NCBI RefSeq assembly: GCF_024502345.1
Contig: NZ_JALDNN010000002.1
Length of the DNA stretch: 64,000 bases
Reading direction: 5' to 3' (one strand)
From: Escherichia coli
GTDB lineage: Bacteria > Pseudomonadota > Gammaproteobacteria > Enterobacterales > Enterobacteriaceae
Position numbers and translations under genes: made by a program. The notes beneath the pieces are model-generated. The model did no database searches, had not been told where the DNA came from, and was given only the letters and a program-made list of their open reading frames with translations. Shown here piece after piece: positions 56,185-64,000 of this stretch. The stretch's first letter is position 1; each line of letters begins with the position of its first letter.

Positions 56185-57156
56185 TTAGACTCCTGGTTTC
56201 TCAAGCTCCTTAAGAATGGCTTCTATTTTCTCTATACACTCCGCAGGAATGCGGGACCGATCTAGGTTAAGCACTATTTTATCGCCCTTATACAATGCTG
56301 TTGCCCCTGGAGCAAACTGATGACGTGAACTCAGATTAACTCTTGATGCGCGAGATTGTTTCAGTACGGATGTTAAAAGACTAATGACCTCTTCAGCTTC
56401 AAAGATTAGTCCCGCTTTCTTCTGATCGTGGAGAGTCTCAGCCTGCTGCTTCAGTAATTCTTCTTTATCTGCAAAAGCCTTCTGAAGGGCTTCACCTGAC
56501 CGGGCAGACAGTTCTCCAGGATGTGCAAACAGGGCAACAACTGATTTAGGCAGTTTGGCCGTATTGATACAGCGGGTAATGATCTTACGAGAGATGTTTT
56601 CCGCATCGGCAAGCGCAGAAATATTTCCGGCAAACTCATTCTGCAGCCGGCTTGTATAACGCAGGCCACGTTCATAAGCACTCGTCGGCCGATAATCGTT
56701 ACCCAGCCGGGACAATGCAGCCATCTGCTCGTCGTCCAGTTCACCAACCAGAATGCGATAATCACTTTCCGTCAGGATTGCGGCTTTACGGCGACGGCTG
56801 CCGTCTGCAATTTCTATGACATCAGAAACCCAGCGGCCGAAAGCTGGAGTCTGCTGACCGGTCAGTAAAAATGAAGGTATGAGATCATCCAGAGCATCTT
56901 CGGTAAGTAGTTCCTGATCACGCTCATTTCCTGACCATACGCGTGAGGCGCTCTCAACAGACTCTCCCCGGAGCACCTCAAGGGTAAATTTTACTTCCCG
57001 TCCACATACCGGAAGAGAGATAGCATTACCGCGGGCCATAGCACCCACGCGCGCAATTAATGAATCCACCATCGGCGCGGCCGGCGCCGGTGATGAAGTA
57101 TCTTCAGTCGATTGAGTATGTGTGGTATGCCTTGGAATGACAGGGGCACGCTTCAT
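56185..57156 (-). CDS. sopB: partition protein SopB (ParB family)
   Basis: 323 aa matching F-plasmid SopB from memory. Confidence 0.95.
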
Positions 57157-58331
57157 TATCTAATCTCCCAGCGTGGTTTAATCAGACGATCAAAAATCTC
57201 ATTACAAACAGGTTCCCAGATTGAAAGTGCGTTTCGCCATGCGCCGGTCGAAGAACGTTGATCAATCGCCTGTTCGAAAACGGTTCTCATGCGGATCTGG
57301 CCTTTACCAACTTCATCGGTTTCACGTACCACATTTTTAAGAACCATGCTTCCCCATGCATCGCGAATTTGTTCTTCCATCCACGGTGACTGCGAACCAT
57401 TGTTATTACTGTATTTGGTAAGCAGAATACGGACATCCGGCTCAAAGCCTTTAAGATCCACATTCCTGAGCAGATCACGAAGCATATCGAAAAACTGCAG
57501 TGCAGAAGTGTAATCGAACAGCTCTGCCGGGGTGGGAACAATCAGCACATCAGCAGCGCATACGACATTGATCGTGCCAATACCGAGGTTCGGTGCGCTG
57601 TCGATAACAATCACATCATAGTCATGAGCGACCGTTTCAATAGCAAGGCGGAGCATCAGATGCGGGTCGGTGGGCAGTTTTCCTTCATCAAATTTGCCCA
57701 TCAGTTCAGTTTCAATGCGATGCAGTGCCAGGCAGGACGGAATGATATCAAGGCCAGGCCAGCAGGTTGGTTTTATCGCATAACTGGCATCATCCTTTTC
57801 ACCAAGATAAAAGGGCAGGAGAGTATCTTCCGCGTGTATATGAAGATCGGGCACCCATCCGTGATACATCGAGGCTGTGCCCTGAGGATCATTACCCTCG
57901 ACAAGCAGAACGCGTAATCCTTTCAGGGCCAGGTCCTGAGCCAGGTGAACAGAAACGGAGGTTTTGTAAACACCACCTTTGTGAGCAGCAACACCAATCA
58001 CCGGCGGAAACGCATCTTCAGCACGGCGCAGTCGTGTACCAAATACATCCCGCATGTGATTGATTTGCTCGATGGTATAACCAACGCGTTGCTCAACTCT
58101 TCCACGGGTTTCCATATCAGGGTGAGGCAGCCGGCCAGCTTTCTCGGCATCCCTGATAGCCTGAGATGACACGCCAACTAAATCAGCTGCTTCACCAATC
58201 CTCCAGCGCCGGGTTATTTTCCGGGCTTCCGGACTGTCATCATTAAACTGCGCAATGGCGATTGCTTTCGTCATTTCATGACCAGCACTTATGCACTGGT
58301 TGAGTGTATCCATGAGTCCCATACTGAACAT
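57156..58331 (-). CDS. sopA: partition ATPase SopA (ParA type Ia)
   Basis: 391 aa; Walker A ...[10 protein letters not shown]...; near-identical to F SopA as recalled. Confidence 0.95.
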
Positions 58332-58827
58332 CCTTTAATCATCACTTTGCATTATTTTATTAAATCTTGGAATTTATTGCAAAGCAACAATAAAGACGCA
58401 AAGTGCACGAAAAAGTGCAAAGTGAACCGCATTGGGTGATGCAAAGACCGCAGGGGAGTACAAAAGAGTACATACCGCAGCCAATATTAATCACTGCCGC
58501 TCGCCGCAGTAAGCGATCTCACGGAGTGAGAAAGCGGCGAGGAAGCGGAAAATCACAGAATTCACAGATTGCACGTACGTCGGGTTGCTTAAGATGGCTC
58601 GGGATCAGCCAGTTATAATGAAATTGACTGCGATATGTAATATATTGACTGTGGCATGATACTTACTGTATCTGTGTCGAGAAAGAGGAAAGACGACTCA
58701 GCATACCGCAGTCAATGTTTCATTGTTGTACCTGTAGATCTCAATCTTCCAGAGCGTATTCAGGAAAATCAGGCCAGGGTTCTGGATACCTGGTGAACCG
58801 CCCCGGTAATCCTGGAGACTACACTCT

Positions 58828-59169
58828 TTGAGAGAGGTAACCAGGATGACAAAACATAACCGATTTCCCCCTGAAGTTCGTCAACGCGCTATTCGTATGG
58901 TTCTGGAAAACCAGAATACCTACAACTCACAATGGGCCGCTATCTGCTCCATTGCCCCTAAGATCGGCTGCACTCCCGAGACATTGCGTATCTGGATCCG
59001 TCAGCAGGAGCCCGTTGATGATGAGCAGAATGCGCTGACTGCCAGCGAACGCCAGCGTCTGAAAGAACTGGAGCGGGAAGTCCGCGAGCTGCGCCGCAGC
59101 AATGATATTCTGCGTCAGGCTTCAGCGTATTTTGCCCAGGCGGAGCTCGACCGCCACTGGAAAAAATAA
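58828..59169 (+). CDS. IS3-family transposase OrfA
   Basis: ...RFPPEVRQRAIRMVLENQNTYNSQWAAICSIAPKIGCTPETLRIWIRQQ... Confidence 0.9.
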   Translation: MREVTRMTKHNRFPPEVRQRAIRMVLENQNTYNSQWAAICSIAPKIGCTPETLRIWIRQQEPVDDEQNALTASERQRLKELEREVRELRRSNDILRQASAYFAQAELDRHWKK

Positions 59170-59583
59170 TGCCGCTTCTGGAAAATCTGAGCGGTGAACA
59201 CGGGGTCGGGCCAGTCTGTCATGAGCTGGATATTGCTCCGTCAACGTACTACTGGCATCAGCAACGCCGGAAGTGTCCTGAACGACGCAGTAGTCGGGAT
59301 AAACGCGATGCCGTGCTGATACCTGAGATACAGCGCGTATACGAAGAAAACTACAGCGTTTACGGTGTGCGTAAGGTCTGGCGACAGCTAAAACGTGAAG
59401 GTGTCGGCGTTGCCCGCTGCACCATTGAGCGCCTGATGAAAGCCCTGCAGCTACGTGGGGTGACACGCGGCAAAAGTGTCAGAACCACCCGCAGCAACAA
59501 AGCCGAAACACCGCAGGATCGGGTGAACAGGCAGTTCGTGGCTGAACGGCCCGATAGTCTTTGGGTGGCCGATTTTACCTACG
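59169..59583 (+). pseudogene. IS3-family OrfB, exon-1 part (interrupted by group II intron after ...FTY)
   Basis: ...ERPDSLWVADFTY then intron GTGTG. Confidence 0.85.
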
Positions 59584-60254
59584 GTGTGCCCGGAGTTCAG
59601 GGCGGGCATGGATGCTTAAATGAACCGCGAGTCTGTCTGGAATATTGAACCGGTAACTCACGATGAGAAACCCAACAATCCCACCGGGTGTGACGGTGGA
59701 GAACCTGAGCGGCAGTGACCTGCGGCATGCCCGCAGGGTGATGTAACCCGCTGACAACGGGGATTGAGGCGAGATCACTAAGCCGAGATGATCCTCAAGG
59801 TTAAGTACTGAAAGGCTGAAGAACATGAACCCGTTAATCCGCCTCTGTGGGTTGAAAACGTCACCACGGCCTACGTGATCTGACAGGCCGTGCAGGAGGA
59901 ACTGGCAGTGATACGTAAGCACTGCCGGTCGAAGGTGTTTTGACATGTATGCGAAACACCGGGGCAGCAGCGTCTATCACGCTTGCGTTGCTGACTTCTG
60001 CCAACTTGCGGCAAGCAAGGATAAAGAGTGCGACGGGCAGCCTCCTCAGTATGCCTGAGTCCAGGCAGGTAAACCGGGGAAGGTCAGCGACGGATGTTAA
60101 GGGGGCATGGCTCCGATGACGCGCTGGCTGGCGGAGCTTCCGTAGTAGTCCGCGATGGGGAAAGCCCATTACATGGCGAAGGGAAGCAGTTTGAATGTGT
60201 TTGCGACGTGAATTAACTGACCTAACGAGGTGAAGACCTTTGATAATCAGCGAA

Positions 60255-60390
60255 ATGCAACGCAAGCTTGCCACATGGGCAGCCACCGATCCGTCCCTAC
60301 GGATTCAACGGCTGCTGCGTCTGATAACACAACCAGAATGGCTGGCTGAAGCGGCGCGGATCACGCTTTCATCAAAGGGGGCCCATACCC
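60255..60390 (+). pseudogene. intron RT/maturase, N-terminal 45 codons (split by IS186)
   Basis: MQRKLATWAATDPSLRIQRLLRLITQPEWLAEAARITLSSKGAHT; continues in frame at 61741. Confidence 0.8.
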
Positions 60391-61729
60391 CATAAGCGCT
60401 AACTTAAGGGTTGAACCATCTGAAGAATGCGACGCCTCGGTGCCTCGTTAAGACGATGCCTCGCGTTCTTCAATTGCGTTTTGTAGGCTGTCAGGGATAC
60501 TGTCCCACGAATGGCCACCTGTAAGCTCCAGATGACCATTTTTGTTATTCTCCACAACGAGTTAGTTCTTCTTTTCGGATCCGGCACTTCTGGGGGGGAA
60601 ATCCAGCGATGGCTGGATTATGTCGTCAATTAAAAATGCGGCGAGTAGATTAGCAAATATCCACGCTTTCGCGAGTTCAGGTTCCTTTGCACGCAAAGCA
60701 TCCAGGTGCAGCAAACTTTTGAGCCGCTTAAAAGCCAGTTCAATTTGCCATCGCAGACGGTAACAATCAGCCACTTGCTCTGCTGAATATTCATCTTCCG
60801 GTAATGATGTTAGCAATAGCACATGGCCCGCTGCTTCCAGCGTTTCCGCCTGAACTACTCGTCCTTTTCGACGATTCTCGCTGAGCAGTCGGGTTTTACT
60901 GATTAATGCTTTTTCGGGAGGAAGTGATACGGCAATGAGACGTGCCGGAAAGGGAGCTCCGGCTTTTTTATTACCTGAATTGCCTATCATTACAGTGGTT
61001 TCACCGTTCTTACCGCAATCCAGCCCGCGCAGAAAACCCATCATGTCAAAGCGCATTCCTTCTGCAGTTAACCAGCGCAATCCTCGCCAGTGAACCCGGA
61101 CGATATAATCAGCTTCTCCAAAAGCAAGTGAGCGGATACATTCGGGACGCGAACCGAATCCCCGGTCAGCAATGCGTATCTCGTCTGCCGTTTGCGCAAA
61201 TCGGTCCAGCCGTTCAGCGTCTCTGCTGTCGGTTAGCTCAAAATCAGTGAACTGACAGGTATGAGGATCATATCCCATATGTAGTCGCCATTCAGCGCTG
61301 CCGCCCCCGGGCGCACTGATTGCTGTTCCATCGACAAGACGCAATCTCTTTCCGCTTGTACAACCCGTAACTGCGGCGCGCACAGCAAGTGTTTGTGCGG
61401 CAAGTATGCCAAACCAGTCGGCGGCATTCCGCAGCCGCTTCAGGAGAGCCACGTCAGATAATGTTGCAACGTCATGGAGCTGAGCCCATGCAGTGACTTC
61501 ACGTAATGACATCCCCCCGGGGCCGTAAGCCAGCCCCAGACGTAGCAGAGTTGCAGCATCACGAATTTCGCGGCGGCGGGTTAGAGCCCCGGCATTACGT
61601 GCCGAAGTATCCAGTTCTTCGGGCTTACCAATATGGGCCAGAATTGCTGACCAGTTATCGTGAGAGTAATTCATCGGCACGTTAAATCATATCAGGCGTA
61701 ATACCACAACCCTTAAGTTAGCGCTTATG
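60391..61729 (-). mobile_element. IS186 (1339 bp) with 11-bp TSD GGCCCATACCC
   Basis: IRs cataagcgctaacttaagggttg / revcomp; ggcccataccc at 60380-60390 and 61730-61740. Confidence 0.9.
60562..61680 (-). CDS. IS186 (IS4-family) transposase
   Basis: 372-aa ORF MPMNYSHDNWSAILAHIGKPEELD... Confidence 0.9.
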   Translation of the reverse strand: MPMNYSHDNWSAILAHIGKPEELDTSARNAGALTRRREIRDAATLLRLGLAYGPGGMSLREVTAWAQLHDVATLSDVALLKRLRNAADWFGILAAQTLAVRAAVTGCTSGKRLRLVDGTAISAPGGGSAEWRLHMGYDPHTCQFTDFELTDSRDAERLDRFAQTADEIRIADRGFGSRPECIRSLAFGEADYIVRVHWRGLRWLTAEGMRFDMMGFLRGLDCGKNGETTVMIGNSGNKKAGAPFPARLIAVSLPPEKALISKTRLLSENRRKGRVVQAETLEAAGHVLLLTSLPEDEYSAEQVADCYRLRWQIELAFKRLKSLLHLDALRAKEPELAKAWIFANLLAAFLIDDIIQPSLDFPPRSAGSEKKN

Positions 61730-61740
61730 GGCCCATACCC

Positions 61741-63113
61741 CCGGCGTTGATGGCGTGAACAAAACAATGCTACAGGCCAGACTGGCTGTTGAGCTGCAAA
61801 TCCTCAGGGATGAATTACTCTCAGGCCACTACCAGCCCTTGCCCGCCAGACGGGTTTACATCCCTAAAAGCAACGGCAAACTGCGACCACTGGGTATCCC
61901 CGCGTTGCGGGATCGTATTGTTCAGCGGGCCATGCTGATGGCGATGGAGCCGATATGGGAGAGTGATTTTCATACGCTCTCATATGGCTTCCGGCCTGAG
62001 CGCAGTGTCCACCACGCGATCCGCACGGTGAAATTACAGCTCACAGACTGTGGTGAAACCCGGGGACGCTGGGTGATTGAAGGCGACCTGTCCAGTTACT
62101 TCGACACCGTACATCATCGACTGCTGATGAAGGCTGTACGCCGCAGGATCAGTGACGCACGTTTCATGACTCTGCTGTGGAAAACCATCAAGGCGGGACA
62201 TATCGATGTCGGTCTCTTTCGGGCGGCCAGTGAAGGTGTGCCACAGGGCGGTGTTATATCGCCGCTATTATCGAACATCATGCTGAATGAGTTCGATCAA
62301 TACCTGCATGAGCGCTACCTGAGCGGGAAAGCCAGAAAAGATCGGTGGTACTGGAATAACAGTATCCAACGGGGCCGAAGTACGGCGGTCAGAGAAAACT
62401 GGCAGTGGAAACCCGCGGTGGCGTACTGCCGCTATGCCGATGATTTTGTCCTCATCGTCAAAGGCACCAAAGCACAGGCGGAAGCCATCAGGGAGGAGTG
62501 TCGGGGTGTGCTCGAAGGCAGTCTGAAACTCAGGCTGAACATGGATAAGACTAAAATCACCCATGTTAATGACGGCTTTATCTTTCTGGGGCACAGGATC
62601 ATTCGCAAACGCAGTCGTTATGGCGAGATGCGAGTGGTCTCAACGATCCCGCAGGAGAAAGCCAGAAACTTCGCCGCATCGCTGACAGCACTGTTATCAG
62701 GCAACTACAGTGAAAGCAAAGTCGATATGGCTGAACAACTCAACCGAAAACTGAAAGGCTGGGCCATGTTCTATCAGTTCGTTGATTTTAAGGCCAAAGT
62801 CTTCAGTTATATCGACCGTGTCGTGTTCTGGAAGCTGGCTCACTGGCTGGCCCGCAAATACCGTACAGGTATCGCTTTCCTGATGAGGTGGTGGTGTAAA
62901 CCACCGAAACCGGGTCAGAGCAAAACGTGGGTTTTATTTGGTAAAACCAATCACGGCAAGCTCAGCGGCGAAATACTGTACCGGTTGGTGGGGCAAGGTA
63001 AGAAGCTGTTCCGCTGGCGGCTACCCGAAGGTAATCCCTATCTGAGGACGGAGACCAGAAACACGTATACATCGCGCTTTACAGAAGTGGCAATGGCGTT
63101 CGCCAGCATTTAA
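61741..63113 (+). pseudogene. intron RT/maturase, C-terminal part
   Basis: ...PGVDGVNKTMLQ... RT domains with YADD (...YCRYADDFVLIV...) and maturase region. Confidence 0.85.
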
Positions 63114-63118
63114 ATGGA

Positions 63119-63152
63119 GAGCCGGATGCGCTGAAAGGTGCACGTCCGGTTC
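63119..63152 (+). ncRNA. group II intron domain V (GAGCCGGATGCGCTGAAAGGTGCACGTCCGGTTC)
   Basis: Canonical domain V hairpin with AGC triad and GAAA tetraloop, 6 nt after the RT stop. Confidence 0.85.
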
Positions 63153-63203
63153 GGGGAGGAGAGGCAGGGAAATAGTCCGACTACGCCCTGCCTCTTACTC
63201 TAC

Positions 63204-63676
63204 TCAGCACCTGGCAGGGGTTCGCATATGTGGCCTTCATCATTGATGTGTTCGCCGGTGTTATCGTGGGCTGGCGGGTCTCATCCACGATGGAAACGTC
63301 GTTCGTGCTGGATGCACTGGAGCAGGCGCTGTGGGCCAGACGCCCGAGCGGTACCATCCATCACAGCGACAAAGGTTCGCAATATGTGTCACTGGCGTAC
63401 ACGCAACGGCTGCAGGACGCGGAGCTGCTGGCTTCAACAGGCAGCACGGGCGACTCATATGACAATGCGATGGCAGAAAGTATCAACGGGTTGTACAAAG
63501 CGGAGGTGATCCACAGGCAAAGCTGGAAAACCCGACAGGATGTTGAGCTGGCTACGCTGAAATGGGTGGACTGGTACAATAATCACCGATTGATGGAACG
63601 GACCGGATATATCCCGCCAGTGGAGGCAGAAAAAGCCTATTACGCTTCGCTGAATGACCGGGATGTGGCAGCCTGA
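63204..63676 (+). pseudogene. IS3-family OrfB, exon-2 part
   Basis: ...AFIIDVFAGVIVGWRVSS...HSDKGSQYVS... Confidence 0.85.
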
Positions 63677-64000
63677 TCACTCAGGCAAAATACTCTCCAG
63701 GAAAACCGGAGCGGTTCATGGTGTGGCGCTTCCGGCCTTGTATCTGAGTTATTCAAGGTCTCGATCCAATAATTGATCCCAAGGAGATCATAGTGAGATC
63801 CAAAAGAGATCCCCGGATCGCTCCAGCATGCGCTGTAACTGGCTTTAACGTCTGTCTGGATCGACTGCGGAATGTAAAATGTTGACTGTTATATGCATAA
63901 TCTAATACTGTGATATGCAACGGTATTTACTGAGGTATGTATATCCGTTGACTGCGATACGTATTACTACATCCTTTTGTGGATAACCGTTGAGGATCAA

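Follow-up and report, generated by a model that had tools for sequence, protein, structure and literature searches.

E.c.I4 is a group II intron that homes into the transposase genes of the insertion sequences (ISs) IS629, IS911, ISEc16 and ISEc31 (Leclercq & Cordaux 2012, PMC3522654); its open reading frame (ORF) belongs to class A and is devoid of an endonuclease domain (PMC3552965). IS186 targets the motif 5'-GGGG(N6/N7)CCCC-3', which has 54 occurrences in Escherichia coli K-12, and sites of this kind were found to be hit up to 16 times independently (Lee 2016, PMC5009759). One of its targets, in the lon promoter, is entered in either orientation (SaiSree 2001, as reported in PMC3045373). 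Here, we describe a 64,000-nt stretch of E. coli DNA (the window; contig NZ_JALDNN010000002.1), 100% identical to a 75.8-kb IncFIA/FIB plasmid of strain AW1.7 (NZ_CP073626.1, 75,842 bp), in which an IS3-family element is interrupted by E.c.I4, which is itself interrupted by IS186. It is very probable (about 90%) that these three selfish elements were inserted successively, each by its known site-specific route.

Like the copies of E.c.I4 reported from IS3-family genes (PMC3522654), the intron of the window lies in sense at the homologous ...TY| position of orfB. Once IS186 and one copy of its target duplication are removed, it differs from E.c.I4-2b (E24377A, NC_009801 4848623-4850892) by only 7 mismatches and no gap over 2270 nt (99.69% identity), the boundaries of both introns agreeing within 1 nt (3' end); this intron is E.c.I4. 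Unlike the published copies, it resides in a rarer IS3-family member (of 5,426 complete E. coli genomes, 25 contain the 300 nt upstream of the intron and only 8 the uninterrupted junction) and its ORF is broken by IS186. All genome counts given here refer to these 5,426 genomes. As in known IS186 hot spots such as the lon promoter (PMC3045373, PMC5009759), the target in E.c.I4 fits the motif and was entered repeatedly and in both orientations; unlike lon-type hot spots, it is located inside another mobile element, itself found in up to ~20 places per genome. Since this hot spot is carried by a mobile intron, every new intron copy adds a preferred IS186 target.

Two other comparisons can be made. 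The gene ykfC of the K-12 prophage CP4-6 contains the same reverse transcriptase (RT) region with an uninterrupted IS186 site (100% over the 300-nt query). It corresponds to E.c.I4-tr1, a 1764-bp intron fragment (supplement of PMC3522654), and, unlike the window intron, which is full length apart from IS186, it is a truncated remnant without any host IS context. RmInt1 in Sinorhizobium ISs and E.c.I2, E.c.I3 and E.c.I9 in E. coli ISs, as cited in PMC3522654, likewise occupy a conserved site in a non-essential, multi-copy and horizontally mobile gene, whereas they involve other introns and other IS families and, in the cases as described there, no third nested element. The individual components, their target preferences and the presence of the intron in IS3-family genes had all been documented before, and public genomes commonly show the arrangement. 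What is added is a minor detail, namely a recurrent IS186 hot spot within E.c.I4, and not a new kind of system. No description of this hot spot was found in the literature searched; Leclercq & Cordaux (PMC3522654) mention copies with a disrupted ORF, and IS186 is absent from their text and supplements.

The formation of the nest can be pictured as follows. A 1305-bp IS would first have landed in the backbone of the plasmid, with sopA on one side and the RepFIB gene repB on the other, duplicating TGG. E.c.I4, an intron of the endonuclease-less class A, would then have retrohomed in sense into its usual D-x-T-Y| site of orfB. Lastly, IS186 would have entered, in antisense, a GGGG(N6)CCCC motif at codons 42-46 of the RT/maturase ORF. 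Intermediates compatible with this order were found for every stage: the backbone alone in ~1,900 plasmids; the IS without the intron, both at the same right plasmid junction in pSYM5/6 (locus L020, strain G3/10) and in a chromosome (L010); and the IS occupied by an uninterrupted intron, at this very position of the plasmid, in L003 and in records including NZ_CP107722.1. Together with the structure itself and the recurrence of the IS186 step detailed below, these intermediates are directly demonstrated. The nest had already been recognized in a first-pass annotation made from the letters of the window: its coordinates all hold in a base-for-base check, and the three-level nesting, both target duplications and both restored frames agree with natural empty-site sequences.

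The outer IS (58794-63718, plus strand; 1305 bp without its passengers) begins with TGAACCGCCCCGG and ends with CCGGAGCGGTTCA. As expected for the IS3 family, its ends are of the TG...CA type (TGAACCGC...GCGGTTCA) and belong to imperfect inverted repeats of ~28 bp (58794-58821 and 63691-63718; 24/28 matching). It is flanked by two copies of TGG (58791-58793 and 63719-63721), and the empty backbone with a single TGG (58644-58793 joined to 63722-63871) is matched over 300/300 nt in many plasmids; the 3-bp duplication proposed from the sequence is thus real and not a chance repeat. The first ORF, orfA (58846-59169, plus strand), matches NCBIfam NF033516 (IS3 family). An ALIL frameshift pseudoknot was detected on the same strand at 59124-59240 (Rfam RF01497, 93.3 bits, E 9.6e-24, gathering score 50), and the NCBI annotation pipeline PGAP marks the same programmed frameshift feature in uninterrupted copies of the IS, which has the two-ORF organization with a -1 frameshift. 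The left part of the IS (58794-59583), in which orfB begins and runs as far as ...DFTY, is 99.9% identical to the uninterrupted copy L010; the right part (63204-63718) carries the 3' part of orfB with its stop codon at 63674-63676. Joining the exons at 59583/63204 gives an open 295-aa OrfB (...ADFTYVSTWQGF...), the junction reading ...VADFTY-VSTWQGFAYVAFIIDVF..., and this protein is a DDE transposase of the IS3 family (304.5 bits against NF033516, cut-off 160). The joined 1305-bp IS is 99.9% identical to the chromosomal copy L010, without gap, and also aligns gaplessly to L020. In both alignments the frame of OrfB is restored, which is in agreement with the precise insertion of the intron after ...FTY read by the first-pass annotation and disposes of the failing exon frame that it had named as a possible objection.

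PGAP names this element merely 'IS3 family transposase'. Its earlier designation as 'IS629-like' is acceptable in the loose sense of an IS3-family relative, but not for IS629 itself, which was ruled out by an OrfB identity of 76% at the amino acid level and a DNA identity of ~74% to the host element in the plasmid pAA. According to the convention of ISfinder, isoforms share more than ~95% nucleotide identity. The pAA host element, with which the comparison was made, is here taken to be IS629, an assignment to which PMC3522654 also points. The outer IS is a rare IS3-family relative. As no AW1.7 chromosome record is found among the 28 records matching the IS, the plasmid copy is apparently the sole one in the strain.

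The intron extends on the plus strand from GTGTG at 59584 to ...CTAC at 63203 (2270 nt without IS186 and one duplicate). Its 5' part (59584-60390) comprises domains I-III and the start of domain IV and is 100% identical to the intact intron of L003; the RT/maturase ORF starts at 60255, so that its codons 1-45 lie to the left of IS186. The 3' part (61741-63203) carries the rest of this ORF (stop 63111-63113), domain V (63119-63152), domain VI and the ...CTAC end. Rfam RF00029 (domains V-VI) matches positions 63117-63203 (64.9 bits, E 1.6e-11, gathering score 40), i.e., a region that includes domain V and ends at the exon junction. The GTGTG start, domain V, domain VI and the CTAC end are those of a group II intron, with domain V exactly where it had been placed beforehand. 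Removal of IS186 and of one duplicate restores, as had been claimed, the ORF split after codon 45; the resulting 502-aa protein carries the Pfam domains RVT_1 (2.2e-34) and GIIM (2e-10) and scores 341 bits against NCBIfam TIGR04416 (group II RT/maturase; cut-off 300). In the fetched loci, the intron always follows the T-Y of a conserved D-x-T-Y, in four or five IS3-family hosts. A candidate exon-binding site 1 (EBS1; intron nt 263-269, UGUGGGU) can pair with the 5' exon ACCUACG and, through wobble pairs, with the exon variants of IS629 and IS911 types, which is only suggestive; among the EBS2 candidates examined by pairing, none holds for the IS911-type exons.

The window intron differs from intact copies by only a few point substitutions. 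Three of them, in the 3' part (61741-63203) at nt 1945, 1968 and 2066 of the restored intron, were seen rarely or never among the other copies compared, and two of the three alter the RT/maturase (S425F and S433P). These rare substitutions would be compatible with a relaxed selection after the insertion of IS186, their number being too small for a test.

IS186, a member of the IS4 family, occupies positions 60391-61729 in minus orientation (1339 bp, with 23-bp perfect inverted repeats, CATAAGCGCTAACTTAAGGGTTG). It has 1 mismatch over 1343 nt (99.93% identity) with the annotated K-12 IS186A, and its transposase gene (60562-61674, minus strand) is intact, the protein being identical to InsL1 over 370/370 aa (133.3 bits against NCBIfam NF033592, cut-off 115). 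It is the sole IS186 copy of the plasmid, being found at one place in that record. Copies of GGCCCATACCC are present on both sides, at 60380-60390, within the motif GGGG(CCCATA)CCCC, and at 61730-61740. The 11-bp duplication announced by the first-pass annotation is thus present, whereas its length depends on the reading: L003, which has an uninterrupted intron at this plasmid position, matches on both sides of IS186, and the halves aligned to it share 13 nt. Depending on the assignment of the terminal C and G, the duplication therefore measures 11-13 bp. The insertion took place after the first base of codon 46 of the RT/maturase ORF, in the target AAAGGGGGCCCATACCCCCGG; the stretch AAAGGGGG-CCCATA-CCCCCGG fits GGGG(N6/N7)CCCC, as expected for an IS186 target.

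The nest is not unusual. The intron/IS186 junction is present in the orientation of the window (300-nt query fully covered) in 64 of the 5,426 genomes and in the opposite orientation in 32, strains NT1F34, NT1N28 and cM8a having both. IS186 therefore occupies the E.c.I4 site in ~1.7% of complete E. coli genomes; with about 90 further genomes sharing it, the nest is ordinary. The recurrent nests are found in several different host IS types and in very diverse contexts: in those that were fetched, a type VI secretion cluster, a tellurite-resistance island, a tRNA-Leu island and a porin gene, and furthermore the virulence plasmid pAA of O104:H4 and the K88 plasmids of enterotoxigenic E. coli (ETEC) from pigs.

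Comparison of the nests points to repeated insertions. In pAA, both IS186 duplicates have the variant sequence GGCGCATACCC, implying that the pAA target was already substituted before the insertion. In pUMNK88_K88 (L009), IS186 is inverted and lies 1 bp away from the usual insertion point. An IS911-type host is common to L004 and L008, whose IS186 copies have opposite orientations, and both orientations are found on each of two intron haplotypes. When the substitutions of the intron and of IS186 were compared over 13 loci, no diagnostic substitution common to the IS186-bearing copies was found in either element, the differences being private to each copy. The variant duplication, the 1-bp shift, the two orientations and the two haplotypes together indicate several independent insertions at this site, no fewer than four or five.

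Other features of these copies deserve mention. The intron haplotype 700T plus 1085T is common to L016, L018 and L009, which involve three host IS types and either IS186 orientation; this sharing would be consistent with a spread of the intron prior to independent IS186 insertions or with recombination between copies. In most pAA records, for example L002 (C227-11), IS186 lies in an intron located between aggR and aap, while the intron of L011 (pAA-EA11, strain 2011C-3493), a plasmid with the same O104:H4 serotype and pAA type, is intact. The introns of L002 and L011 differ by 4 substitutions, including one at a duplicated position, so that IS186 was not simply excised; the intact intron of L011 could result from gene conversion by a chromosomal copy or from an assembly effect. 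In L005, L006 and L013, unrelated DNA begins beyond the 5' part of the intron and IS186, and in L007 a second, inverted copy of this 5' part is found there; the arrangement of these four loci suggests that IS186-associated deletions or inversions took the 3' half of the intron. The IS186 of L009 has a 62-bp internal deletion that reduces it to 1277 bp, and the junction of this type has the same identity and coordinates across a series of pig ETEC plasmids.

Among the other explanations, the one that fares best, while improbable, is that an IS186-loaded intron was formed only once, has remained mobile and was spread either through retrohoming, helped by an RT/maturase acting in trans, or through gene conversion, the window copy being one of its descendants. 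Such a spread would account for the occurrence of the intron and IS186, with the same orientation and duplication, in at least four IS3-family host types and at many loci, and for the twofold excess of the window's orientation over the opposite one. IS186 is moreover inserted ~135 nt past the start of the ORF, so that this start, at which maturases of other group II introns bind, is probably intact. On the other hand, the existence of L003, whose intron at this plasmid site has no insert, is explained most simply by an insertion in place, IS186 is known for repeated insertions at single sites, and the absence of a common diagnostic substitution, like the minimum of four or five demonstrable independent insertions, does not fit a single event. 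A single origin was rejected as the main explanation on the ground that the IS186-bearing copies of the 13 loci have no shared haplotype. Trans-retrohoming from one origin found no support in these comparisons and might concern individual copies.

It is still harder to believe that the composite serves the plasmid, for example by altering the control of RepFIB or sopA, and was kept by selection. Its position among iteron-like TTGACTG repeats, ~285 bp upstream of repB, and the retention of the IS, with or without passengers, at this site in several plasmids would favor a function. However, ~1,900 plasmids have an uninterrupted backbone, the sequence contains no hint of regulation, and the variable states of the site (the IS alone, with the intron, or with both the intron and IS186) fit neutral hitch-hikers. 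Finally, a misjoining of repeats during assembly, which the first-pass annotation had named as what could undo its reading, has almost no credibility: E. coli genomes contain each of the three elements in multiple copies, which are typical trouble spots for assemblers, and the two plasmid assemblies of AW1.7 differ in size (75,842 versus 66,909 bp), but the nest is 100% identical in both of them and in plasmids of other strains, each junction has a proper target duplication with a restored frame, and analogous nests are present in dozens of independently assembled complete genomes; the artefact was rejected on the basis of these multiple independent records and of the duplications at every junction.

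The succession of three site-specific insertions thus remains the preferred reading, and a few points weigh against it or against its corollaries. The order in which the IS precedes the intron could be reversed through intron loss. From L003, in which the intron at this site is intact, the window intron differs by 5 substitutions, all in the 3' half, and recombination between intron copies has probably happened. The inactivity of the split RT/maturase and the resulting immobility of the outer IS are inferred. In addition, a 452-aa ORF starting from a GTG (61755-63113) keeps RT domains 1-7 and domain X, and its product is conceivable, although it has no obvious ribosome-binding site and is a pseudogene for PGAP.

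The consequences for the three elements may be as follows. Of the RT/maturase, a 46-codon stub and, on the other side of IS186, 452 codons without the N-terminus are left, so that the window copy would be unable to supply its own maturase or RT. Bacterial group II introns generally need their maturase for splicing in vivo. With this maturase lost, splicing would be expected only with the protein of another E.c.I4 copy, a rescue that would be possible because the ribozyme is otherwise intact. The first-pass annotation, in which OrfB could be made only if the intron spliced without maturase, overlooked this provision in trans: an uninterrupted IS186 site in the intron ORF was found in 2,181 of the 5,426 genomes (~40%), counting those with the K-12 remnant ykfC. 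Without splicing, no OrfAB transposase would be produced and the outer IS would be stuck; since no other copy of it was found among the matching AW1.7 records, it is probably immobile. IS186 alone would still be autonomous, because its transposase is intact.

On a wider scale, one may imagine that the built-in hot spot makes IS186 a recurrent inactivator of E.c.I4, the E. coli group II intron with the widest distribution, and that it indirectly locks the host IS3 elements or, in a stronger version, that loaded introns are spliced and retrohomed in trans with IS186 as a cargo of an RNA route; this scenario is doubtful. The recurrence of the IS186 insertions is observed, and an effect at the population level and a mobility in trans would be proposals going beyond it. 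For biology at large, the nest is of little consequence, as its sequence was already public and its pieces were marked as pseudogenes by the annotation pipeline. It nevertheless provides a clean natural case of one mobile element repeatedly disabling another. Annotation pipelines split such nests into 'partial' genes, and recognizing the nest explains five pseudogene calls. The IS186 state of E.c.I4 might also serve as a marker for strain typing, as it is polymorphic, for instance among the O104:H4 pAA records.

The plasmid setting can be described as follows. The composite is bordered on its left by sopA (57156-58331, minus strand), and the RepB-family replication gene (RepFIB repB) starts ~285 bp past its right end. 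Besides NZ_CP073626.1, the window is matched by the second plasmid assembly of AW1.7 (66,909 bp) and by plasmids of two further sources; four plasmid records (five with H35), both AW1.7 assemblies among them, contain the full nest with 100% identity. Iteron-like repeats, TTGACTG(C/T)G..ATA, are found at 58620-58720 and 63880-63960, on both flanks of the 4.9-kb composite, which indicates that the IS inserted inside the repeat region upstream of RepFIB repB. The IS of L020 lacks, next to its left end, the 125 bp corresponding to window positions 58669-58793, a gap that looks like an IS-adjacent deletion. At a coverage of at least 80%, the empty backbone is matched by 1,891 records, mostly of the IncFIB type from Klebsiella; Klebsiella plasmids account for 1,511 of the 1,917 records matching it, many at 100% identity. 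As the empty backbone is carried mainly by Klebsiella plasmids, the RepFIB/sop region is common to plasmids of Klebsiella and E. coli.

A last observation concerns the interior of IS186, where a hairpin, GCCGGAAAGGGAGCTCCGGC, followed by TTTTTT lies at 60944-60973 on the plus strand, i.e., in sense relative to the orfAB/intron transcript and in antisense relative to the transposase gene. The total of the terminator scan was 6, as compared to 4.8 in shuffled sequence, and hence without excess over background. This hairpin might shorten the intron RNA, which can be taken as a hint only.

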